Of a DNA stretch of 64,000 bases, positions 7,524 through 50,496 are shown piece by piece. The stretch's first letter is position 1; every line of letters begins with the position of its first letter. The translations under genes were made by a program, and so were the position numbers. Under the pieces are notes generated by a model that ran no database searches, had not been told where the DNA came from, and saw only the letters and a program-made list of their open reading frames with translations. Source of the DNA: a virus (Duplodnaviria > Heunggongvirae > Uroviricota > Caudoviricetes); IMG/VR virus record IMGVR_UViG_3300031760_000006, positions 91,127-155,126 of that record, one strand, 5' to 3'.

Positions 7524-10500
7524 CCTTGTGTCCTTTCTTGCTGAATTACTAAATCTCTTCCATTAACTTCTTTGATTAAGTTTACTGTATGTTTGTAAAT
7601 TGTATCTTTATAAACCATTGGAATAAATTGGTCACCTCTACGAATACCTGCAATCATAATTAAATTTCCACGTTTTAACCAACTATCCTCTATTTTTTTC
7701 TTTTTGTCTGTTTCGGGGTCTACAACAGATATAATTTTGTTGTAAAAACTATAATGCCCCTTGTTGAATTTAACATTAACAGGCCCATATTTGGTCAATA
7801 AAGTAACCATAGAATGAAAGTTGTCTGCTTTAAGAACAGTTCCCGCAATACGAGAAATCTTATGTTTAGGAATCTGCTTTCTTTCTCCGTCTATCCAACG
7901 AGTATAATAATCATATGGTTCTGGCTCTTCAGGTAACTCAAAATAATTAACTACACCGTATTTTTCTTCGTTTATATGTTCTAACTCATGTTCTGAATCA
8001 TAATAACAGAGCGATTCCATTGACCAATGAGGAAGAGTTCCACTAGCATATTGATTCCATATTTGTGCATAAAGAGCGTCATTATATTTATCCAATGCCG
8101 TCTCCATCCATTCTTTAAAAGGAAGAAGTTCTTTATCAACAGCTTTTTTGAATTGCTTTTCTGATATGATATAAAAACCATTTTTAGCATCAACTACGCC
8201 AGCTTCTTCTTCATTTGGAAAAAACTTTTGAAAATATGGTTGTGAGGTACTATCTAGAATATAAAACCTGTCATGGTAACCTTTCTTCGGAATCTTTTTA
8301 CGTTTTGAATCAATGTAATTTTTATAAAAACCTTCATCATCTAAGATGTATTCTTTTAAGTTAAGTAAATCTAACAAAACATAATATTTTTCAGGTACGA
8401 TTCCTAACTCTTTCATTTTGTTTAATTGTGCCATTGTCAGCTTCTTACAAGGACGAAAAAGATATTTTCTAAGATACCAATCCATAGTTTCTGTTCTATC
8501 TTTAGAATGCAACTCTGTAAAACAGCCGCCTTTAATTAATTGAATCATTCTTGATGGTGAAACAATTTTTGTATCAATCATCCTTTTTGCAAAATCTTCA
8601 ATAGATTTATAAGGACGATTGGCTATAATTGTTTGCGTTAGTTCTGTGTTAATACCGTTAATACCTTTCAAACCAAAGATGATTCGATTATTCGGTATAT
8701 CAGGTTTAAAACCAAAATCTGCTTCATTAATCAAGGGCATTGTTACATTTACGGATTCTTTTTGAACAGAAGCTATAGCTACTCCCATCTTACCATAATC
8801 TGTAGAATCGTTTGATTCTTCATCAAGAGAACCTGAATCTACTACAAGATTGGCTGTCTGCCAATAAATAGGATTATATTTATAAGAAAGATTAAGTTCT
8901 TGCAAACCTACTATTGAATAAGCAAGTGTATGACTTGAATTAAAACCATATCCACGAGAAGTAGCGATTAATGTATTCCAAACATAATCACATAAATTTT
9001 TACTACATCCGTTTTCTTTTGTGACTTGGAAGAATTCTTTTGTCAATTGGTCATACTCTTTTGGATTCTTTTTAGCAATACTTTTTCTTAATCTGTCTGC
9101 CCAAGAAAGAGAAAAGCCACCACACTCAGGTAACTGAACCAATCTCATAAATTTTTCTTGTGTCTCGCAAATGCCATAAGAAGATTTTAAAATTGGTTCA
9201 AGAATTTTCTGTTCCTCTTTTGTTAATCCTGCGTCATCCATCTCTTGATACCATTCGTTGATATCGTTTTTAAATCTGGCAAATTTATTTAAGGGTGTTT
9301 CAGCACCTTTTTCTTGTGACATCAATCGAATAACAGAGTTAATAGTAGCTAAATCATCTACGGAATGCGGTTTTGCTAAAGCCAAAGCTTGTTTGCCACT
9401 TTCTTTTTCCATCTGAAACAGAGATAAAACTTTATGATTCCAAAGAAGTTTCCACATATCTTCATTATCACGTTCAAGAGTGTAAACCCCTATGTATTTT
9501 TCATATGTGTCTCTCAAACTCCCTTGCCATTTAATTACATTATCTTTTAATAAAAGCATTAAAGTTTCATAAATTTTATCTAAGGCATCAATACATAACA
9601 AATCAATTTTAATTAATGAAACATCTTCACAGCCATGTAAATCAAACTGGGTGATTACGTCACCTGCTTTGGTTCTCATTAAAGCGGTAGATTCAGTAAA
9701 CGGCTCATCAACTATAATTACTCCTCCAGCATGACTTCCCACATTGCTGACCAAACCTTCAATCTTTTGAGCAGCCTCCCATAAATCAGGATGTGCGTCC
9801 ATAGACCGCTTAAATTCGGGGGAAGGAGCATAATCTTCATTTCCGTAATACATTGTGGATAAAGAACGAGCAATTCCTCTGTCCGAAATAACCAAAGAAG
9901 CAATGTAAGAAGCAGTATTGTTATCTATACCAAGACCTCTCGCCGCAGTTAGAATTGCCGCTTTAGGTTTTTCTGTTGATAAAGTCATTACTTTACATAC
10001 CCTATCTTCACCATAAGTATCCTTTAAAGCTTGGATAACCTTATCTCTCATACAAGACATGATGTCTACATCAATATCCAAAACAGACACACGTTCAGGA
10101 TTCATAAATCTCCAAGGAAATGTTTGCGTTTTCTCTCTCATCGGATTAATTTGCGTTATATTAAGCATATTCAATAAACAGAACCCAACACCTGAACCTC
10201 GTCCGGGGTCTACTAAAGTTCCAGTTTTCCAAGCAATATCAACATAATCCGCAACTTGCATTAAATAAGCAGACCATCTTACTTTATTTTTTTCGGACGA
10301 TTGCTTAATATAATCTAAACATTCGTTTATTTTTTCAAAAGCCTGTTCCGTTCTGTAAAACGGGTCTTTATCCATTCTTTTAAGAATGTCACGAATCATA
10401 TGTCTGTCCGAATCATATTCTGAATGAAAGAAAAAATCTAATAACTCAACTTTGTCTTTATATTTCTGAAACAATCTTTTATCAGGTTCTTCTTTATTCA

Positions 10501-22315: not shown

Positions 22316-23236
22316 TTATTTTATTAAGTAATCTTGATATTTTCTTTTAAAAATAGATGGGATAATATTACATCCATATTGATGTTCAACTTCAAATAAG
22401 TACCGATTGATATATTCTTCTCCTGTAATGCCACGTTCTTTTGCCTTGATATTAACCATATGAATTTTTCCTGATTCAATAATGGTATTAATCGTATGCC
22501 ATTTACCAATTCCAATATAATCCAGCACTCTTACCATCAAATGATAAATTTTTCTTCCTTTAGAAAACTCACTAAATTGTCTAGCAGGTGGTACAAATCT
22601 AACAACTGTATCACTAGGTATATAAGGCAGTATCCTGTTTGAGCCAAATTTCAAAGGAATATACTGGTCTTCAACTATACTCTCTTCCGCTAAATTTATT
22701 AGTTCCCTTGAAACAAAAACTGTTCGGTCAGAAAGAGTCACAGTTTGATTTTCAATATCAAAATCTTCCATTCTAAGATTGGTTAAATCAGAATAATCTT
22801 TGTTCCTTCCAACCTCAAAGAAATACAAGATTACAAATTTATCCCTAGCATTTGGCAAAATACGAGATAAACTAATTAATTCTTCTCTTGAAATAATACT
22901 GTTATCCATTGCCATTTTGTTAAGACAACTATAAATCGCATCCATAGATACTTCAAGATAATGGTTTTGTCCATCCGGGACTAAATTCTGTTCTAAGCAC
23001 CATTGAGTATATAAAGAATAAGCAGAGTTCCGTACATTCAAAGCATCAAAGGAACGTAAATTAAACAACTTGTAACATTCCATTATCTCAAAAGCAGTAA
23101 ACTGAGACAAATCTTTTTGTTTCTCTTCTTCATATTTTTCCATGTAATTAAACAATCTCTTTAAATAATTATTAGCGACTATTGTCGTTTCTTCTTTTGC
23201 GTTGATATATCTTTCCTTTTGCTCTTGATTAAACAT
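22316..23236 (-). CDS. hypothetical protein, possibly a degenerate tyrosine-recombinase-like protein
   Basis: 306 aa. Weak resemblance to an integrase SAM-like N-terminus and an HxxxR...Y pattern near the C-terminus. Not secure. Confidence 0.2.
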   Translation of the reverse strand: MFNQEQKERYINAKEETTIVANNYLKRLFNYMEKYEEEKQKDLSQFTAFEIMECYKLFNLRSFDALNVRNSAYSLYTQWCLEQNLVPDGQNHYLEVSMDAIYSCLNKMAMDNSIISREELISLSRILPNARDKFVILYFFEVGRNKDYSDLTNLRMEDFDIENQTVTLSDRTVFVSRELINLAEESIVEDQYIPLKFGSNRILPYIPSDTVVRFVPPARQFSEFSKGRKIYHLMVRVLDYIGIGKWHTINTIIESGKIHMVNIKAKERGITGEEYINRYLFEVEHQYGCNIIPSIFKRKYQDYLIK

Positions 23237-24567: not shown

Positions 24568-25554
24568 TTAAATATTAATTAATGCACCCATAATTGCGGA
24601 TGCTTCTTCCGTTTTATTTTTCTGACCTCTAATATACCTTTCTGTTGTTGTAGGACTTGCATGACTCATACATTCCTGTACGAAATAAATATCTTTTGTA
24701 GCATTGTATAACTGTGTTCCATACGTTGCTCTAAGTTTATGAGGAGTAATATTTTTTCCTTCAATATTTTCACCATATTTTTTAACGAGTTTATAAATTG
24801 CGGCCTGACTCATACGCTTTTTATTATTCGAAATAAACAATGCAGTTTCTTCTACATTTTCTAATAATTCTTTTCTTTTTACTGCCCATTCTTTAATCAA
24901 ATAAATAGTTTTTGAATTTAATTTATGCTCTTTTATTTTTCCACCTTTCTCTATAATTGTTAATACTTCTTTTTGAAAGTCAATATTAGACACATCTAAT
25001 TTAAATAAAGCCGCACATCTAATACCAGTGTTTAAAAAAATCGCCATTATAGCTTTATCTCTTTCTTTCCAATTTTTTTGTCTATTTTTAGCTCGGTTTG
25101 TTCCAACACCTGTTTCAATATTAGTTAAGAATTTTAATATTTCATCTTCTTCTAAAAAAGCTTTTTCTCTTTTTTGCATTGTTTCAATATTTTCTTTAAA
25201 TTTAGGTCTTTCAATATACTGCATATAATCTCGCTCACAAAATTCATTTGCCTTCAAATATTTTGAAAACTTTTTTAAAGCAGAATAACATAAAATTTGA
25301 TAAGATGAAGTAGTATCACATAATCCACTTAAAAAATAAGTATAATCATCGAACTCTATATTTCGATAATCTTTGTTAATTTTCTTTAAGAAGTTAGCGG
25401 TTACTTGAACATAATCATAGATTGTTGTTGGAGCAAGAGACGAACTTAAATAATATTTAAAGCTTTTTAAAATCTTTTCATTTTCATTATTATTATCAAT
25501 TAATAAATCTGCTTTTTTTCTATAAATATCTTTATAATAATTAATTCCATTCAT
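24568..25554 (-). CDS. tyrosine recombinase / phage integrase
   Basis: The C-terminal HKLRATYGTQL...SHASPTTTERYIRG carries the R..HxxR..Y catalytic pattern. Confidence 0.75.
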   Translation of the reverse strand: MNGINYYKDIYRKKADLLIDNNNENEKILKSFKYYLSSSLAPTTIYDYVQVTANFLKKINKDYRNIEFDDYTYFLSGLCDTTSSYQILCYSALKKFSKYLKANEFCERDYMQYIERPKFKENIETMQKREKAFLEEDEILKFLTNIETGVGTNRAKNRQKNWKERDKAIMAIFLNTGIRCAALFKLDVSNIDFQKEVLTIIEKGGKIKEHKLNSKTIYLIKEWAVKRKELLENVEETALFISNNKKRMSQAAIYKLVKKYGENIEGKNITPHKLRATYGTQLYNATKDIYFVQECMSHASPTTTERYIRGQKNKTEEASAIMGALINI

Positions 25555-36620: not shown

Positions 36621-38033
36621 TTAAGCGGCGATTCCTGCATTCACCTCCATTTCTCTTACAATCGCCTTATATAACTCTGGATGAGTTTTTAAGTTCTTTT
36701 GCATACATAATGGAGAGTAGTAATTCTCAATATGCTTTACTTTTTTCTTGTTATAATGGCTGTTACCATATCTGTTATAAATTTTTGTTCCGTCTTTTAA
36801 TTCAAAGGGTTTGTTACTATTAGGTCTGTAAATCACAACTCCTTCGTCATAAGGTTCGTAACCAATTCCTGCAATATCTTTATGATTTGTCTTGCAAGAT
36901 TTGATACAATCCATGATGAATTCGTTTATTCTTTTTAAATCTTCTTCACAGTTGACAATTGGAAGAATACTTGTTGCCCAAGAATATTCTCCGTTTCCAA
37001 TATAAAGGATTCGATTGACTGCGTTGACTGCCCCCTTCATTGAGATTTTTTTCTTAAGAGTAGCTTCTTTTATCTGTTCTCTTAATTTCTCTAATCTCTT
37101 TCTTGAAATTGTTATTTTACTTCCTTTTATTGAGAATCCTAAGAACGTAATCCATCCGTTTTCATAAACAGATTCAACCTTCTTCGGATTCAATGTTAAT
37201 CCAAAACTCATAAGTCTTGCCTTGAGATAGCCCAAAGCATACTCATGATTCTTACAAACAAAGAGAATGTCATCTGAATAACGAACATACTGTCCGTTGC
37301 AGATTTTGTTCATTTCTTCATCCATGTCATAAAGAAGCACATCAGCTAACCAAGAAGCTACTGCACAGCCTTGCTTTAAAGACTGATAACGATGAACTAA
37401 TTCACCATCAATATAACAAGTATCTTGATGATAATATTTCCTTAAGATTGTGATGATACAAGACTTTCCAAATTCCCTTTCGAATCTGTCAAAGATTGCA
37501 TCAATAAACTCAATAGGTACTGAGTCAAAGTATTTAGAAAGGTCTGCTTTCGCTCCAATCTTTCTTCCTTTTTTAATTTGTCTTCTCTGTTTTCTATTGA
37601 GTTCTTCAAATCTTTTTCTTCTGAATATTTTTTTACTGCCGTGAATAATCCATTTAGATACTTTCACGACAATTTTACCAGTTCCAATTCCCTTCTGATA
37701 AGACAAGCAATGAGGACTTATCCAACCTCCTGCCTTAAGTGTTATAGTGAACAAAGCATTCGTTATAACACTGAGGAATATTCTGTCTTGTCCAGAATTA
37801 ATAAACACTTTCCTGAATTCTCCGGGCTTGTCTTTTGGTATCTGTTGTACATCTGGAATACCAATTGTATACTGTTCCAAGACAGCTTTTTCAAAAATCT
37901 CTTCCGCTCTGTATTCAGGGTTGGAGATTTTATTTAAGATTCCTTGGGGAATCTCTTTTATAATTGCTCCTGTGCGTAAGGCTTCTTCCCAATAAGAATA
38001 TTTTTTGCATTCCTCAAGAAGAATATCTGCCAT
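36621..38033 (-). CDS. reverse transcriptase (retron / DGR / group II-like RT domain; subclass undetermined)
   Basis: RT motifs RKVFINSGQDRIF (1), SYQKGIGTGK (2), KADLSKYFDSVP (3), LKQGCAVASWLADVLL (4), YVRYSDDILFV (5, YxDD), GLTLNPKKV (6) and TFLGFSI (7). Confidence 0.85.
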   Translation of the reverse strand: MADILLEECKKYSYWEEALRTGAIIKEIPQGILNKISNPEYRAEEIFEKAVLEQYTIGIPDVQQIPKDKPGEFRKVFINSGQDRIFLSVITNALFTITLKAGGWISPHCLSYQKGIGTGKIVVKVSKWIIHGSKKIFRRKRFEELNRKQRRQIKKGRKIGAKADLSKYFDSVPIEFIDAIFDRFEREFGKSCIITILRKYYHQDTCYIDGELVHRYQSLKQGCAVASWLADVLLYDMDEEMNKICNGQYVRYSDDILFVCKNHEYALGYLKARLMSFGLTLNPKKVESVYENGWITFLGFSIKGSKITISRKRLEKLREQIKEATLKKKISMKGAVNAVNRILYIGNGEYSWATSILPIVNCEEDLKRINEFIMDCIKSCKTNHKDIAGIGYEPYDEGVVIYRPNSNKPFELKDGTKIYNRYGNSHYNKKKVKHIENYYSPLCMQKNLKTHPELYKAIVREMEVNAGIAA

Positions 38034-43731: not shown

Positions 43732-44646
43732 TTATTTCCTTTCTTGTTCTATTTCTTTAATACCTTCTTCGAACATTTCTTGGTCTTTGTCAGACCATTT
43801 ACGAATACCTTTTGCGTATTCTTCTGCTCGAATTTCTTTATATTCCAATTCAGGTTCAAGAGGATAAGCAATCACACCTTTAGCAAAATAGTAATCTCTT
43901 TTCTCTTGGAAAGACGAATTAGCATTAATAGAAGTTGAAGATACAAGTTTATAAGCTACTTCTTTACGTTTCTCTTTTAATTTTTTATCCTGAGATTCAG
44001 GGAATTGTGTAAAAGAACGAAGTAAAGAAGTATCTAAATCTATTATATTTTCTTTATTTTTTATTTCTTTCTCTTCTTCACCCCCTTGCGAAGCACCAAA
44101 GGACATATTATACTTGTTAGACAATTTTGGTAGTGACGGACAATTCTGTCGGACGAAATTGTCTACCCTAGACAATTCTGTCGGACAGTTTTGTCTACCC
44201 CCGACAATATTGTCGGACGAAATTGTCGGACGAAATTGTCTACCCCCGACAATATTGTCTACCCCCCTAGACAATTCTGTCGGACGAAATTGTCTACCCC
44301 CGACAATATTGTCTACCCCCTCATTTAGCTTGGAGAGGTTAGGACGTATAATTCTGTCTTTCGTGTCTGCACCTTCACGGCGATAACTCATTTTTAACAG
44401 TTCCTTTGTTTCAAGGTCTGTTAAATAACGAGTTATATTACGTTCGCTTACACAAAGGATTCGTGCCAAGTATCCGTTGCTAGGACAGCAGAATCCTTTC
44501 CTTTCTGACATGGCAAGGAGTTTTGCGAAAAGCATTATTTCCTTGCCATTTGTTATTTTGATTTCATTTAATGCATGGATTAATTCTGTGTCGATTAAAA
44601 TGAAATCAGTGTTTTCATTTGCGTTTGCATTTGTATTATTATCCAT
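43732..44646 (-). CDS. putative replication initiator / replisome-organizer-like protein with origin iterons inside its coding sequence
   Basis: The N-terminal winged-helix-like region (LARILCVSERNITRYL) resembles DnaD/replisome organizers. The central peptide repeats NIVGGRQFRPT are encoded by DNA iterons. Confidence 0.45.
   Translation of the reverse strand: MDNNTNANANENTDFILIDTELIHALNEIKITNGKEIMLFAKLLAMSERKGFCCPSNGYLARILCVSERNITRYLTDLETKELLKMSYRREGADTKDRIIRPNLSKLNEGVDNIVGGRQFRPTELSRGVDNIVGGRQFRPTISSDNIVGGRQNCPTELSRVDNFVRQNCPSLPKLSNKYNMSFGASQGGEEEKEIKNKENIIDLDTSLLRSFTQFPESQDKKLKEKRKEVAYKLVSSTSINANSSFQEKRDYYFAKGVIAYPLEPELEYKEIRAEEYAKGIRKWSDKDQEMFEEGIKEIEQERK
44120..44330. repeat. iteron array: 6–7 copies of ...GACAATTCTGTCGGACGAAATTGTCTACCC... 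containing the palindrome GACAATATTGTC
   Basis: TTGTCTACCC occurs six times. There are nested 12–30 bp direct and dyad-symmetric repeats. Confidence 0.75.
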
Positions 44647-47054: not shown

Positions 47055-47130
47055 GAATGTCAGGTTTCGAACCTGATGCCTAACCTTAAGGATTAGTTGG
47101 GGTCACCAAACATAATACAAAATACCACAT
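47055..47130 (-). ncRNA. tRNA-like element (good T-arm TCAGG-TTCGAAA-CCTGA, possible anticodon arm). No clean acceptor stem found by eye.
   Basis: The minus strand reads ggtgaccccaactaatccttaaggttaggcatcaggttcgaaacctgacattcgtt. Confidence 0.2.
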
Positions 47131-48266
47131 ATTGGCAGAAAATGCTATCAATATGCGGTATTAACATATTATGTGCTTGCCGTGGATAGTATCTTTACTG
47201 TGTACTATCCCATTCGTTAACTGATAAGTTGATATTATCCCCTAAGATATTTATAGACTTGTGGTGCTGATATTTTAAGCGTCCAAGTCTTTGTAACACA
47301 TGACAGCCCTCTCAATACTACAGTCATTAAACAGACGTCATGCATGGACTTTCACCATAGGATTCAGAGTAATAGATAATTATATCATTATACTCCACTT
47401 TTCCCGTCATAAGCGTTACCTCATGATATACCGCATCCACCATTGCAGTACGTTCTTTTCACCTGAGTAGCTTCCTCACCCTGACGTTTTGATTCCGCTC
47501 TAATCGACTCTGACCCACCTCACCACAAGGTAGTCTCCTCCGAAAAACGGGTGGTTGGGATTGTACTTAGGTCATAGCTAGAATATAATCCTAGTCATAA
47601 CAGTACATTCCTCGGATAATCCCCTGCGACTTAACGCAAACATTCCTCATCGACCATACGCAAGGTCATTCGGAGCTTTCAAAACATAATGCTCGTATAC
47701 TAAGAGTTTTCAAGGCTCATGCGGTATACAACATCGCAGATTTACTCACAACCTACTAGTCCTGTTTCAGCCTCAGAATATTCCTGATGTTTTTCACCAG
47801 TGTTATCTAGGGACTTCTCCACAGTATCTACGAATTTCACGTAGACCCTCAGGAATCCTATTTGTTCCAAGATACGTGTTTCTGGCGGTAAAATATACCT
47901 ATAGTTCTGCAAAGCAGTCCTATGGCGTTTTATATTGATGCATCGTTGCGATTGTCCACTATGGCTTAACAGAGTATTCCACGTTGCGGATTTTCACGGT
48001 ACAATACACCCCTACAAGACGCTATGTCTAGCCAAAGCCAGTCATGCCCGCTTGGTGTACACAATATCTCCCCATACGTCTCCCCATGCTTCACGGAGTC
48101 CAGTGTTAATGGGCTACCAGTGCCGTCTACCGTAGACGGTGAGTCTCTCACATGCGTATGGTATTGTCAAGGTACGAACTTAGCCTAGTATCTCAAGATA
48201 AACTTCTACCCAGTTTGGTAGGGAGTCCTAGATTCCACAATCCTATATGAGTGCGTTAACACGGTG

Positions 48267-48354
48267 GTCGTAACCAGAATCACTCACTTGGTGCCACAGT
48301 TCGTACCATATATTAGTCGTAACCAGAATCACTCACTTGGTGCCACAGTTCGTA
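48267..48354. repeat. 40-bp direct repeat GTCGTAACCAGAATCACTCACTTGGTGCCACAGTTCGTAC, two copies with a 48-bp period
   Basis: Identical copies lie at 48267..48306 and 48315..48354. Confidence 0.8.
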
Positions 48355-48542
48355 CTAATCTTACACTCGGAGATGTATCCCCAAGGACATAGTATATCCC
48401 ATGATATTCAGCTAAAACTCAACTGTGGTCAGTTGATACGAGCCGTTGGGAGTCGAACCCATATAGCCACCTATTGGCACGGTCGCAGACTAGGGATTGT
48501 GGGTCTATGGTATTGTTATAGTTGTGGGTCTGGTGTATAGTC

Positions 48543-49220
48543 CTACTTCGCCTTCTTCTCCCACTTCTTCACCTTAAAGGTGAACTTACGTGGTGTGATA
48601 GCCTTGGCTTCAATCATGAAGTCAATGGCATCACGGAGTAAGCCGTCTCTCCATGTAGCATAAGTCTGAGCTGTCCGCAGGATACCTCTCTGATACCTCT
48701 GCTTGCGTGTAGAGTTCTTCTTGCCCATGAAAGCTACAAGTGCCTGCACGGTCTCGATGTGTGCTTCTACACCGTTCTGCTCAAGCCAGTTTGCCAGTGC
48801 GACTACCAGTTTGGTGCTGTCCAAGCTATCAATGTACTCCACGTAGGCGTTATACATCTCACGGTTCACCAGTGCCTGTCCGTCTTTCAAGCGGTCATTC
48901 TTCACCTTTTGAGCGGCCTGTTTAGCGGTCTTGTACTCCTCGATGTCCGCATAGAGCTTGGTATTTTCTTTCCGCAAGTCCAGTATGGTCGCATTCCTCA
49001 CGATAGTCTTCTTCTCCTCGAGTTTGGCGATGTCGGCGTTATTCTGCTCAATCATGCCCTTGCGGTTCGCAATGGAGTTGTTGATTTCATTCAGGGTATC
49101 ATCCAGCTCCAGAATGGCATTGGCATATTTGCCGAGGGTTACACAGAACCCCTTTGCATCCTTACGGTTGAAGTCACACTTGCCAGTCTTGATTTCGCTA
49201 ATTGTTGTGTATGTTGTCAT
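48543..49220 (-). CDS. coiled-coil hypothetical protein. GC content is visibly higher than in the rest of the window.
   Basis: Start moved to MTTYTT, which has an AGGAGG RBS. 225 aa. Confidence 0.45.
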   Translation of the reverse strand: MTTYTTISEIKTGKCDFNRKDAKGFCVTLGKYANAILELDDTLNEINNSIANRKGMIEQNNADIAKLEEKKTIVRNATILDLRKENTKLYADIEEYKTAKQAAQKVKNDRLKDGQALVNREMYNAYVEYIDSLDSTKLVVALANWLEQNGVEAHIETVQALVAFMGKKNSTRKQRYQRGILRTAQTYATWRDGLLRDAIDFMIEAKAITPRKFTFKVKKWEKKAK

Positions 49221-49325
49221 AATAATCCTCCTATTCTGGGGGCATCCCCCTATGCATATTGTGTGTTTTATTATGACCCACAATCCCTCAATGGTCGTTT
49301 GAGTACCCGACAGTAGAAACTTTAG

Positions 49326-49499
49326 TTAAAGTTAAAAATCTTATCAGCTTCCTTTAATTCATTGATATACTCATCAACAATTTTTTCACTCGCAATTGCC
49401 AAAAGACGGTTTTTAAGTTTAACGTAATCCGTTGGCTCTCCCTCGTGTTCGCAAGCGTGTTCTAATATGATAGCATCCATTTCCCATGTAGTCATTTCA
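49326..49499 (-). CDS. small hypothetical protein (57 aa, below the track cutoff)
   Basis: Translated by hand as MTTWEMDAIILEHACEHEGEPTDYVKLKNRLLAIASEKIVDEYINELKEADKIFNFN. Confidence 0.25.
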
Positions 49500-49896
49500 A
49501 TCCCCCCCTAAAAAATCGGTCGGGTGCTCAAATGACCATTGAGTCCTAGCCCGTATGAAATTACCAAGGTACAAGGCGACCGTTTCGGTCTTGGTTTTCA
49601 GTTTCGGTCGAAAGGCTGTTGTCTTTCGACTTGACCCTCTTATACACGATATAAATGAAAAGGCAAATCTTTTTTGAAAGCCTCAAAACCCGCATAAACA
49701 GTGGCTCTTTAAGGTAAAACAAACTATAATTTGTTTGACTTTAGAGGGGGCTGCTTTCAACCCCGAAAGACCCTTTAAACAAGCCACTCTTGGGATGCGG
49801 TCTGCTTCTACACTGACTAAAAAATCAATTCGCAATATTAATCGTTTTTTAACCAATCTCATCTTAAAATTCTTAATCTTTACCCTCATCCATAAC

Positions 49897-49983
49897 TTAT
49901 CCACAATTTATCCACAATTCCACCAACTCCCCATCTCCCCACCGCACTTGACAAAAATCGATTTTTGTGGTATACTATCCACA
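49897..49983. promoter_or_regulatory. cluster of three DnaA boxes: TTATCCACA at 49897..49905 and 49908..49916, cTATCCACA at 49975..49983
   Basis: All three are exact matches to the DnaA box consensus TTATNCACA. The third overlaps the promoter -10 region. Confidence 0.6.
49948..49976 (+). promoter_or_regulatory. sigma70-type promoter TTGACA-17-TATACT (TG-extended) for the rightward arm
   Basis: TTGACAaaaatcgatttttgtggTATACT. A CCACACCAA x3 repeat lies in the 5' UTR. Confidence 0.6.
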
Positions 49984-50079
49984 ACGTCAAACTACGACTA
50001 TTTAATTTCGTTCGTTTGCTACGTTCCCAAACCACACCAACCCACACCAACCACACCACGAAAGGAAGGTGACATTCCA

Positions 50080-50496
50080 ATGTCCAACGCAACCCTTAGA
50101 CTTATAACCCAGCCATCGGATACCCTTCATTTAATGGATATCCCCTATGACACAACCTATGTAGCCATTAGACCCCGTTATGAAGACCCAGTAGAAGACT
50201 CTGAAACAGATTCCACCACAGATTCCACACCAACCCTTACCCACTACGAAATCCAAGTCGGGCCACCAACTGACTTTACTAAAATCTGGGTTATGGCTAC
50301 TTACTCCTCTCTTGAAATAGCTACTTATGCTTTTGACTTAATGTTACAAACCGCTTTTAATAATGAAGAAATGTTTTTTCAGTTTCCGACTGAAGACGCT
50401 ATTTTAGAATTTATTGAAGCAGAACAGGAACTAGAACAGGAATCAGAACAGGAACAGAAGCTGGAACAAAAGCAAGCTAACAAATACCTTAATTAA
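50080..50496 (+). CDS. hypothetical protein with acidic EQELEQESEQEQKLEQKQ C-terminal repeat
   Basis: Start at MSNATLRL with a GGAAGGTGA RBS. The track ORF begins further upstream. Confidence 0.45.
   Translation: MSNATLRLITQPSDTLHLMDIPYDTTYVAIRPRYEDPVEDSETDSTTDSTPTLTHYEIQVGPPTDFTKIWVMATYSSLEIATYAFDLMLQTAFNNEEMFFQFPTEDAILEFIEAEQELEQESEQEQKLEQKQANKYLN

Follow-up and report, generated by a model that had tools for sequence, protein, structure and literature searches.

A promoter with an array of DnaA-box repeats, a candidate operator for host DnaA, at the arm junction of an SPbeta-like rumen phage

A strong rightward promoter at the point where the two gene arms of a temperate, SPbeta-like phage from the rumen diverge is overlapped by one DnaA-box-like site and preceded by a tandem array of others. 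We read this element as a promoter-specific operator module, most likely bound by the DnaA protein of the host (presumed to be a Firmicute of the rumen), and from its motifs and geometry we would give this reading a probability of about one-half. Its most likely role is that of a transcription switch rather than a replication start. Throughout, the window denotes the whole 64-kb stretch of phage DNA that was analyzed.

Organization of the boxes and the promoter

The upstream array consists of a decayed copy and two perfect boxes in the same 11-bp register (Table 1), which Tandem Repeats Finder delimits as 2.9 copies with a period of 11 bp (49888-49919); an AT-rich tract (49821-49885) lies directly 5' of it. 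As DnaA boxes we accepted 9-mers matching TTATCCACA or the stringent form TTWTNCACA, and two perfect copies (beginning at 49897 and 49908) were found. A first-pass annotation of the region had counted three perfect boxes; the count holds for these two, whereas the third, box 3, has a C at position 1 that places it outside the stringent form. Box 3 does sit on the -10 region as that annotation had it, covering the final two bases of the hexamer and extending through the predicted start site, so that the arrangement typical of DnaA-repressed promoters, i.e., a box over the core promoter or start, is present. From spacing alone, transcription is predicted to start at ~49983-49984, which places the array of the window at about -97 to -67. 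The hexamer TTGTGG (49965-49970) is repeated in inverted orientation as CCACAA (49979-49984), with 8 bp between the two.

The promoter combines TTGACA, a 17-bp spacing, TRTGn, and a TATAAT-like hexamer, i.e., the sigma-A/sigma-70 type with a -16 element. In a promoter scan it was the top-ranked site across 46 to 52 kb (11/12 hexamer matches and a TG before the -10), which bears out the consensus sigma70 promoter annotated earlier. The window has at least nine promoters of this family (TTGACAAA...TGTGGTATAAT), among which this one alone is a strong plus-strand member and alone carries boxes. Long ORFs are almost all on the minus strand to the left of ~49500 and on the plus strand to its right, and the AT skew flips at ~49.8 kb; the arms thus diverge here, as had been noted. 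To call this a divergent control region is nevertheless too strong, since the rightward promoter is the only one identified and no convincing leftward promoter was found in 49500-49990; a leftward promoter formed from the reversed boxes was rejected for want of a conserved -10.

Table 1. Sequence features of the control locus and two genes discussed in the text (window coordinates)
Feature	Position	Strand	Details
MrpR/YopR homologue, full-length	22319-23236	-	Pfam MrpR_N_CB, 1.3e-13; 25% identity over 282 aa, E 2e-15
Lambda-O/DnaD-like initiator gene	43735-44646	-	Iterons inside gene
Decayed in-register box TCATCCATA	49886-49894	+	7/9 match; followed by 2-bp gap AC
Distal box TTATCCACA	49897-49905	+	Perfect DnaA-box consensus, read directly; followed by gap AT
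Proximal box TTATCCACA	49908-49916	+	Perfect in the window, read directly from the sequence
C-rich spacer between array and -35	49917-49947	+	G-runs on the bottom strand; without DnaA-trios
Sigma-A/sigma-70 promoter	49948-49976	+	-35 TTGACA (49948-49953), 17-nt spacer, -10 TATACT (49971-49976)
18-bp palindrome ACAAAAATCGATTTTTGT in promoter spacer	49951-49968		Perfect; inverted-repeat scan
-16 TRTG element, TGTG	49966-49969	+	Gram-positive type; within promoter
Box 3 CTATCCACA	49975-49983	+	8/9 match; end of -10 to predicted start site
Predicted hairpin at transcript 5' end	49983-50025	+	13 pairs, interrupted
Leader repeat AACCACACC	50027-50059	+	G-poor, C/A-rich; x3.1 at 50030-50058 (Tandem Repeats Finder)
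Shine-Dalgarno AAGGAAGGTGA	50062-50072	+	Ahead of ATG 50080
First rightward gene	50080-50496	+	ATG at 50080; 138-aa acidic protein, 27 D/E vs 7 K/R

A chance origin of the box features, which are real, is unlikely. The 9-mer shared by the boxes, TATCCACAA, occurs four times in the window versus 0.82 expected, a number reached in 0 of 100 shuffles; only one copy is outside the control locus, at 9853 within a coding sequence (the window covers 64 kb, with ~91 kb of the genome beyond it). Clusters within 100 bp of at least three boxes, each with no more than one mismatch, arose in 2 of 300 shuffles, and clusters of at least two perfect boxes in 1 of 300. The apparent coincidence in these figures is inflated by the choice of the finding for its likeness to a known motif, and the two perfect copies represent a single tandem duplication rather than independent events.

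Conservation in related lineages

Through the first rightward protein we found 13 related lineages, all of them close kin (~83-95% nucleotide identity in the gene) and hence amounting to few independent observations. All 13 retain the -35 and -10 hexamers and the TGTG, which are still intact in three lineages (L027, L028, and L031) where the promoter spacer has been replaced. Box 3 is likewise invariant in 13/13, but it lies inside a block that is invariant anyway (-10 to ~+55), so that its conservation is no specific evidence. The upstream array is present in 9/13 lineages in one to three copies, with the distal box perfect, the proximal boxes weaker, and a constant gap of 2 bp; it is missing from four (L021/L023, L025, and L026), in which the promoter is intact. 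Conservation of the boxes, which the first-pass annotation had itself proposed to look for, is therefore found for box 3 throughout and for the array in part.

Within the nine array-bearing lineages, the constraint is on particular parts of the array. The distal 13-mer ACTTATCCACAAT is identical in 9/9, with all nine box positions invariant, and the proximal box is 67 bp from box 3 in every case (68 in L032), including L028, where a single perfect box is still at this distance. In relatives the proximal box begins with CC, CT, or TC followed by ATCCACA, around the invariant core ATCCACAAT; as its positions 1-2 vary (TT, TC, CC, and CT) and the 2-bp gap AT is fixed, the conserved unit is ATCCACAAT and not TTATCCACA. 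Across the aligned rows, 0 of the 22 columns in ACTTATCCACAAT plus ATCCACAAT are variable versus ~10 of 30 in the adjoining spacer (Fisher estimate, ~0.002), and this constancy of the box cores beside a varying spacer points to selection. L030 has an additional decayed box copy at the position of the decayed copy of the window. Other 11-bp tandem repeats, TTTTCCCAAC, occur close by in L030, L034, and L038, and the array coincides exactly with a mosaic junction, the similarity of the relatives to the window beginning at 49885-49921.

Several other candidates for a signal in this region were discarded. Against an operator role for the spacer palindrome, L027, L028, and L031 have other sequence in its place and L038 has one mismatch in it. 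Curved DNA from phased A-tracts does not fit a unit that has ATCC, not ATTT, in most lineages. A plasmid-partition centromere like R1 parC, in which 11-bp repeats surround a promoter, would need more repeats, and there are no ParM/ParR-like genes downstream. An ORF on the minus strand (49683-49904) that a single metagenome record annotates, with its start within the distal box, has an indel and poor conservation in L032.

Searches by other routes did not widen the set of relatives. Deposited phage genomes gave no match in DNA searches at either near or distant range, and neither of the two genes that flank the control region recovered relatives from IMG/VR; IMG/VR relatives obtained through the RNA ligase (L001-L018) have only this gene and a Thg1-like gene in common with the window phage and show neither synteny nor box clusters. 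Exact-pattern scans with the leader found nothing in viral contigs or genomes and only a near-identical JGI contig in metagenomes. The region of SPbeta examined has no cluster comparable to the box array.

The leader and the first rightward gene

The 78-nt leader contains 7 G. Its predicted 5' hairpin is near-invariant in relatives, the three substitutions being confined to a bulge, the internal loop, and the pair that closes the loop, where a mismatch results; folding of the whole leader was not significant (z-score, -0.85). The threefold leader repeat annotated earlier is present as described, and its copy number and sequence differ among relatives. Rfam searches of the region recovered no family above threshold, with a single weak match (Clostridiales-3; E = 0.039). 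The first rightward protein has no Pfam, PHROG, PADLOC, or PDB-sequence match, and its AlphaFold model (pLDDT 70) has no structural match. The long rightward operon includes RNA-repair genes.

Replication genes and origin signals of the phage

The left arm is filled with replication genes. The phage encodes a DnaB-type helicase, a primase-like Toprim protein, and a DnaE polymerase, and SPbeta YorL is the closest match to its DNA polymerase (39% over the full length). The gene for the lambda-O/DnaD-like initiator contains ~11 copies of a 12-bp palindromic iteron (44131-44320) and an AT-rich tract (44040-44075), which together make the expected origin of the phage and lie 5.6 kb away from the boxes. 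The cumulative GC-skew minimum lies at ~51.6 kb, ~1.6 kb to the right of the boxes, and the switch in skew goes with gene orientation; the skew test proposed earlier thus does not place an origin at the boxes. DnaA-trios were sought as at least three trios (3'-GAT-5', minimally NAN, with a period of 3) some 13 bp away from the better box; the Ts of the 49917-49947 segment (49918, 49919, 49928, 49934, and 49936) do not follow a period of 3. The families listed for the ORFs of the window (98 ORFs; 25 of 43 and 25 of 39 matching families) include no DNA-binding protein of the DnaA-domain-IV, OmpR, or XRE type. A protein-profile scan of genomes gave no match naming a host.

A promoter operator with DnaA as the candidate binder

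The suggestion of the first-pass annotation that the boxes repress or time the rightward transcription unit is the best-supported reading, with DnaA as a candidate for the protein that binds them. The operator would have two parts, namely, box 3 as a fixed site over the -10/+1 junction in every lineage and, upstream, a modular array of a perfect DnaA-box consensus with zero to two weaker boxes in the same orientation, separated by 2-bp gaps. The perfect distal box would nucleate DnaA binding, DnaA-ATP would fill the weaker neighboring boxes cooperatively towards the promoter, and RNA polymerase would be blocked once box 3 is occupied. The output of the rightward operon would then be set by the free active DnaA of the host, that is, by its replication or growth state. 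That the binder is DnaA, that it represses, and that the module has this physiological meaning we infer from the motifs and their placement. Box 3 is 67 bp, or ~6.4 helical turns, from the proximal box and hence on a different face of the helix. This counts against the reading, as do the four lineages that function without the array and the lack of a comparable cluster in the SPbeta region examined.

A more far-reaching version, which we offer only tentatively, is that the assembly logic of DnaA at origins has been moved onto a promoter, so that free host DnaA-ATP gates the whole rightward operon, the array being a portable module that is gained, expanded (1-3 copies), or swapped for a second promoter.

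Alternative explanations

The main alternative, possible if rather unlikely, is that the ATCCACAAT units are operators of a phage-encoded or other host regulator and that their match to the DnaA box is coincidental. A conserved unit of ATCCACAAT, as opposed to the 9-mer box, favors it, since such a pattern is equally compatible with another protein that reads ATCCACAAT, and an 11-bp period of direct repeats is likewise characteristic of winged-helix response regulators. OmpR-type and XRE-type regulators are not among the families listed for the window ORFs, and the lead candidate is the full-length MrpR/YopR homologue encoded by the phage along with the YorL-like polymerase. Having a tyrosine-recombinase fold, it could bind across the -10 at the inverted pair TTGTGG-N8-CCACAA, whose 8-bp spacer is the geometry of a recombinase core site, and also at the upstream direct repeats. 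The left half of this pair, however, is explained by the -16 TRTG element and reads CTGTGA or CTGTGT in L027/L028; a CRP- or Rex-like palindrome (TTGTG-N10-CACAA) was rejected because its left half is the same variable promoter element. SPbeta MrpR represses promoters through a short repeated element of 15 bp that is found at 10 promoters (PMC10516654), whereas the motif considered here is at one locus only in 64 kb. The SPbeta element, which we derived from the SPbeta genome as AAAAAATATGTATAT (nine matches were located in the 50 kb of SPbeta examined), is moreover dissimilar and unrelated to the boxes and lies outside core promoters. Such a regulator also requires that a 9/9 DnaA consensus at the distal site of nine lineages be pure coincidence.

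We regard as improbable that the array is neutral slippage of an 11-mer that chances to repeat the start-site sequence and that the promoter alone is functional. The copy number of 0 to 3 among close relatives, the decayed copy, the location exactly on the mosaic junction, the nearby TTTTCCCAAC repeats in three lineages, and the intact promoters of array-less lineages would all follow from it. Against this, the box cores have no substitution in nine lineages while about one-third of the spacer columns vary, the single-copy lineage L028 retains both a perfect box and the 67-bp distance, and finding the same 9-mer again within 100 bp is itself improbable.

That DnaA at the arm junction aids opening or helicase loading, in the manner of oriC or of the auxiliary boxes of P1, F, and pSC101, is an origin-like role of the kind first proposed and is suggested by same-orientation tandem boxes with the stronger upstream, by the AT-rich tract just 5' of them, and by a position at the switch of gene orientation and AT skew beside an arm full of replication genes, but it is very improbable for a phage with its own helicase, primase-like protein, polymerase, and iteron-bearing initiator gene 5.6 kb away, in which the 3' side of the array is a C-rich tract and promoter with neither period-3 trios nor an AT-rich unwinding region, the GC-skew minimum is displaced, and four lineages dispense with the array.

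Returning to the operator for DnaA, its binding there would make a clear case beyond E. coli and lambda of the main host-polymerase promoter of a phage being wired to the replication initiator of its host, with a site geometry copied from replication origins. Phage sensing of host replication status via DnaA would become directly testable, and the natural 0-, 1-, 2-, and 3-box variants are a ready-made allelic series for this. If DnaA does not bind, the element would be an ordinary phage operator and a warning against inferring an origin from an arm junction that carries a perfect DnaA-box match.

Comparison with known systems

DnaA acts as both repressor and activator at promoters (PMC8203912), and in lambda, DnaA boxes have been footprinted near pO and DnaA stimulates transcription from pR (PMC3985674). 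Like such promoters (dnaA autoregulation, nrdAB, and lambda pR/pO), the one described here has consensus boxes on or near a sigma-70-type core promoter, with one over the start region in the position expected for a repressor. Unlike their usually scattered sites, its array is ordered head-to-tail with 2-bp gaps, and its presumed host is a rumen Firmicute and not E. coli, DnaA dependence being a candidate feature.

In the ordering of its sites the array is closer to origins. The low-affinity arrays of E. coli oriC have a consensus box and, after it, weaker boxes in the same orientation with 2 bp between them, which are filled from the high-affinity site (PMC6070618). The same order, with 2-bp gaps and an 11-bp period as in the R1/R4-nucleated arrays, is seen in eight array-bearing lineages, L028 having a single box; the differences are the 1-3 sites, the promoter location, and the absence of an adjoining unwinding element and of an IHF or Fis context. 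The commonest box arrangement in bacterial origins is a tandem pair no more than 3 bp apart in which the upstream box is closer to the consensus (PMC8287927). The pair described here shares this form with the basal unwinding system and departs from it in having a 31-bp C-rich tract and a promoter on its 3' side. Iteron origins with auxiliary boxes (P1 oriR, F, and pSC101 type) have these within a few hundred base pairs of the iterons, as opposed to 5.6 kb.

Among phages, those like T5 keep paired DnaA boxes in a noncoding, nonorigin region, for which a function has only been proposed (bioRxiv 10.1101/866236). Both are conserved boxes in noncoding DNA of a large phage, off the origin and near the earliest-expressed genes. 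The eight T5 boxes, however, are in pairs 3 bp apart within inverted repeats of the terminal repeat, unlike direct boxes with a 2-bp gap that flank a promoter with no visible terminal-repeat context. To the SPBRE/MrpR system of SPbeta the window phage is linked by lineage (an MrpR-family repressor homologue, a YorL-type polymerase, and a syntenic replication module) and differs in that the SPbeta element is at many promoters and the box motif at one promoter in 64 kb. The early promoters of phi29 carry Spo0A boxes, sites for a master regulator of the host by which phage development follows the state of the host, as has been shown experimentally. The regulator and motif are different there, and the idea of placing host-regulator sites on phage promoters is the same.

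Gene content and type of the phage

Long open reading frames (ORFs) lie almost all on the minus strand to the left of ~49.5 kb and on the plus strand to its right, in agreement with the first-pass annotation, which had placed the divergence of a leftward and a rightward arm near the boxes. A module for replication and recombination makes up the left arm. Its DnaE-type polymerase aligns along the entire protein with YorL of Bacillus SPbeta phages, at 39% identity; the module further encodes a DnaB-type helicase, a Toprim protein, RecD2, an NAD ligase, a PD-(D/E)XK nuclease, an AAA_24 protein, two tyrosine-recombinase-family proteins, a UG27 reverse transcriptase, and a lambda-O/DnaD-like initiator. 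The right arm encodes an SPFH protein, an RNA ligase, a Thg1-like enzyme, and a kinase-like AAA_33 protein. The left side of the window also holds a full-length homologue of MrpR/YopR, the SPbeta master repressor, and a separate tyrosine integrase; the phage is probably temperate and SPbeta-like. Identical and related contigs, the longest of 155 kb, come from bovine and rumen metagenomes, and a Firmicute host is suggested by the -16 elements and by the strength of the Shine-Dalgarno sites. The UG27 reverse transcriptase is 42% identical to a Bacteroides phage protein annotated as "tail protein."

Features of the control region and of other parts of the window
Feature	Position	Strand	Remarks
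MrpR/YopR homologue	22319-23236	minus	25% identity, E 2e-15
Tyrosine integrase	24571-25554		
Reverse transcriptase	36624-38033	minus	470 aa; UG27 class of defence-associated reverse transcriptases, E 4.7e-131
Initiator gene	43735-44646	minus	lambda-O/DnaD-like
AT-rich tract	44040-44075		adjoins GACAATATTGTC repeats
GACAATATTGTC repeats	44131-44320		
Family promoters (eight)	44721, 33334, 29475, 26612, 24567, 18976, 11536, 5235	minus	
ORF-free stretch	47060-48540	minus	terminator hairpin 47076-47060
40-nt direct repeat	48267-48306, 48316-48355		perfect
GATTGTGGGTC copies	48494-48534 (two), 49271-49283 (one)		last copy inverted
GC-rich gene	48546-49220	minus	225 aa
25-nt inverted repeat	49287-49311, 49519-49543		92% complementary
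ORF between repeat arms	49325-49495	minus	57 aa
Hairpin-rich segment	49540-49830	minus	long-range helix 49697-49706 with 49782-49791
Decayed box TCATCCATA	49886-49894		in 11-bp register of perfect boxes
Boxes TTATCCACA	49897-49905, 49908-49916		full consensus match
C-rich tract	49917-49947		
-35, TTGACA	49948-49953		17 nt to -10
Palindrome	49951-49968		18 bp, perfect
TGTG	49966-49969		-16 "TRTG" element, usual in Gram-positive promoters
-10, TATACT	49971-49976		
Box 3, CTATCCACA	49975-49983		8/9 match
Leader hairpin	49983-50025		43 nt, interrupted (predicted)
ACTAAATTAAA copy in hairpin loop	50001-50011	minus	
CCACACCAA-type repeat	50027-50059		
Ribosome-binding site AAGGAAGGTGA	7 nt 5' of ATG at 50080		strong

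Several features lie just left of the control region. The ORF-free stretch (~1.5 kb; 44 to 47% GC versus 33% for the genome) is located 3' of the GC-rich gene, contains the 40-nt direct repeat and a tRNA T-arm-like GGGUUCGACUCCC, and gives fold z-scores of -2.8 and -3.7 (20 shuffles each); searches of it returned no Rfam family and no tRNA call, and it is a candidate large structured RNA. The GC-rich gene, which has two copies of GATTGTGGGTC just past its stop and the inverted copy just 5' of its start, may be a mobile insert. In the related lineage L032, both arms of the 25-nt inverted repeat are retained with another gene, of 78 aa, between them; the unit behaves as a swappable cassette. The hairpin-rich segment is ~93% conserved in L032 and has a fold z-score of -1.7; Rfam gives it a weak sub-threshold match to Clostridiales-3 RNA (E 0.039). 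It may represent a small RNA or a leader belonging to the leftward arm.

Boxes, promoter, and leader

The first-pass annotation had read three perfect DnaA boxes overlapping a consensus sigma70 promoter. All three 9-mers are present, but only the upstream two match the DnaA-binding consensus fully; box 3, over the -10 element, deviates at one position. With the decayed copy, the perfect pair forms an array of period 11 and 2.9 copies (Tandem Repeats Finder). The 9-mer common to the boxes, TATCCACAA, occurs 4 times in the window versus 0.82 expected, a count reached in 0 of 100 shuffles, and at least three boxes with at most one mismatch each fell inside 100 bp in 2 of 300 shuffles. Since the two perfect copies amount to one tandem duplication, the independent coincidence is that of the upstream unit plus box 3.

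The promoter itself was borne out: its -35, TGTG, and -10 elements are read directly and are unchanged across 13 related lineages, while the spacer has been swapped in three of them (L027, L028, and L031) and shows a point change in a fourth (L038), which is the signature of a working promoter. The palindrome that occupies the spacer was ruled out as a conserved operator by these same replacements and this mutation. Transcription is predicted to start at ~49983 to 49984, so that box 3 would cover roughly -9 to +1. In a scan of the whole window, promoters with the pattern TTGACAAA...TGTGGTATAAT numbered at least nine; among them, only that at 49948 is a strong plus-strand promoter, and no other has a box after it. 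Directly 5' of its -35 element, the conserved C-rich tract is unusual for a 33% GC genome, and its bottom strand, GGTGGGGAGATGGGGAGTTGGTGG, reads as G-quadruplex-prone. Separately, an AT-rich motif, ACTAAATTAAA, has 25 copies with at most one mismatch in the window versus 7.5 expected, local AT-richness being uncorrected; these are mostly intergenic and oriented with transcription (e.g., 17311, 26620, 29458, and 43095, minus strand; 62630, plus strand), and the motif may belong to the promoter family or be an operator of the MrpR homologue.

The hairpin predicted to open the transcript is nearly invariant, its three substitutions falling in a bulge, an internal loop, and the loop-closing pair (which becomes a mismatch). 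A hairpin at the extreme 5' end is a classic mRNA-stabilizer arrangement in Firmicutes; for the leader as a whole, the fold z-score of -0.85 falls short of significance. The CCACACCAA-type repeat is G-poor (7 G in the 78-nt leader), and differs between lineages in sequence and copy number; its appearance suggests an unstructured spacer or a translation enhancer more than a specific site. The first gene product is a conserved, very acidic 138-aa protein (27 D/E versus 7 K/R) with no detectable relatives of known function.

Conservation in relatives

Relatives gathered via this protein (64 to 100% identity to the query) represent 13 lineages, and they bear out the conservation of the boxes, a check that had been named at the outset: box 3 is identical in every relative, albeit inside a block from the -10 element to ~+55 that is invariant throughout, and the upstream array is found in 9 of the 13 lineages. 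The array has one copy in L028, three in L029 and L027, and two in L032, L030, L034, L038, L031, and the window (plus the decayed copy). It always ends 30 to 31 bp 5' of the -35 element, with 67 to 68 bp between its proximal box and box 3. Every distal unit reads ACTTATCCACAAT, a perfect box; the proximal ones read CC-, CT-, TC-, or TT-ATCCACA (the TT form in the window only), and AT fills the 2-bp gap throughout.

L021/L023, L025, and L026 have no array and carry instead an extended -10, TTGTTATAAT, ~70 bp 5' of the -35 element (L021 to L026), which may be a second tandem promoter. Similarity of the array-less lineages to the window starts at 49921, directly past the array, and only L019, L020, and L032 resemble the window left of ~49885, which places the array on a mosaic junction. 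A second 11-bp tandem repeat, TTTTCCCAAC(C/A), is present in 3 to 4 copies ~60 to 110 bp 5' of the box arrays of L030, L034, and L038; the variable left flank seems prone to 11-bp periodic repeats.

The likely binder

By its sequence, the element is a promoter bearing DnaA boxes, a known kind, with DnaA as the putative binder. We put the probability that host DnaA is the binder and acts on transcription at about 0.5. Of the initial proposal that DnaA represses or times the rightward unit, transcriptional control by the boxes stands as plausible, with the part of DnaA itself more conjectural. In favor of DnaA, all lineages with an array have a perfect consensus at its distal site, and the array is polarized toward the promoter. 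DnaA is known to act as a transcription factor (PMC8203912), and DnaA boxes have phage precedents at lambda pO/pR (PMC3985674) and in the T5-like injection-stop region (bioRxiv 10.1101/866236). The 25 of 43 and 25 of 39 matching families listed for the window's 98 ORFs include no DnaA-like, OmpR-like, or XRE-like DNA-binding proteins, and the confinement of the motif to one promoter better suits a host factor recruited for a single task than a global phage repressor.

It is possible, though rather doubtful, that another regulator binds the boxes, their match to the DnaA-box consensus aside. Several points speak against DnaA: variation falls on box positions 1 and 2, whereas the "gap" does not vary; box 3 starts with C and is out of helical phase with the array; and the phage encodes a candidate binder in its MrpR-type repressor. 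The SPbeta operator, AAAAAATATGTATAT as derived from the genome of SPbeta, is unlike the boxes, a mismatch that is not decisive because the two repressors share only 25% identity.

That the array consists of neutral repeats is improbable. Among the nine lineages with an array, 0 of 22 columns vary in the distal 13-mer plus the proximal 9-mer core, versus ~10 of 30 in the adjacent C-rich spacer (Fisher estimate of ~0.002, from our own calculation, across lineages that are all close, at ~83 to 95% nucleotide identity in the gene, and hence represent few independent events). We infer that the box cores are under selection.

Replication origin

The idea of an origin-like element at the boxes fared poorly. 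The likely phage replication origin is at 44040 to 44320, where ~11 copies of a 12-bp palindrome, GACAATATTGTC, and its variants lie within the initiator gene, which the strong 44721 promoter reads through; an origin inside the initiator gene is the same arrangement as in lambda. Origin box pairs have DnaA-trios and an AT-rich region on their 3' side (PMC8287927); no period-3 pattern was found 3' of the array, where the C-rich tract and then the promoter follow. Four lineages manage without the array. The cumulative GC-skew minimum is not at the boxes but at ~51.6 kb; strongly negative skew from 49.8 to 51.0 kb stems from the C-rich leader and first genes, and AT skew changes sign at 49.8 kb, where gene orientation switches as well, so that skew is inseparable from transcription direction. 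We regard a replication role for the element as very unlikely.

Proposed mechanism

If DnaA is the binder, the distal box would already be bound when DnaA is scarce, and as free DnaA-ATP rose, the weaker neighboring boxes would fill cooperatively toward the promoter. Box 3 at the start site would then be occupied and RNA polymerase blocked at the sole strong promoter that serves an operon of at least 14 kb. The effect might instead be activating while occupancy is low, as has been reported for nrdAB. In the array-less lineages, box 3 alone and the extra upstream promoter would give weaker or different control, and the natural copy-number variants of the array provide an easy test series.

The geometry of the array is unusually origin-like, a further point in favor of DnaA as the binder. 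The commonest arrangement of origin boxes is a tandem pair with a gap of at most 3 bp, the upstream box being nearer the consensus (PMC8287927), and in the low-affinity arrays of E. coli oriC a strong site is followed by weaker same-orientation sites 2 bp apart, which are filled in that order (PMC6070618). The phage arrays resemble these oriC arrays in their strong site, their weaker sites of the same orientation, and their 2-bp gaps.
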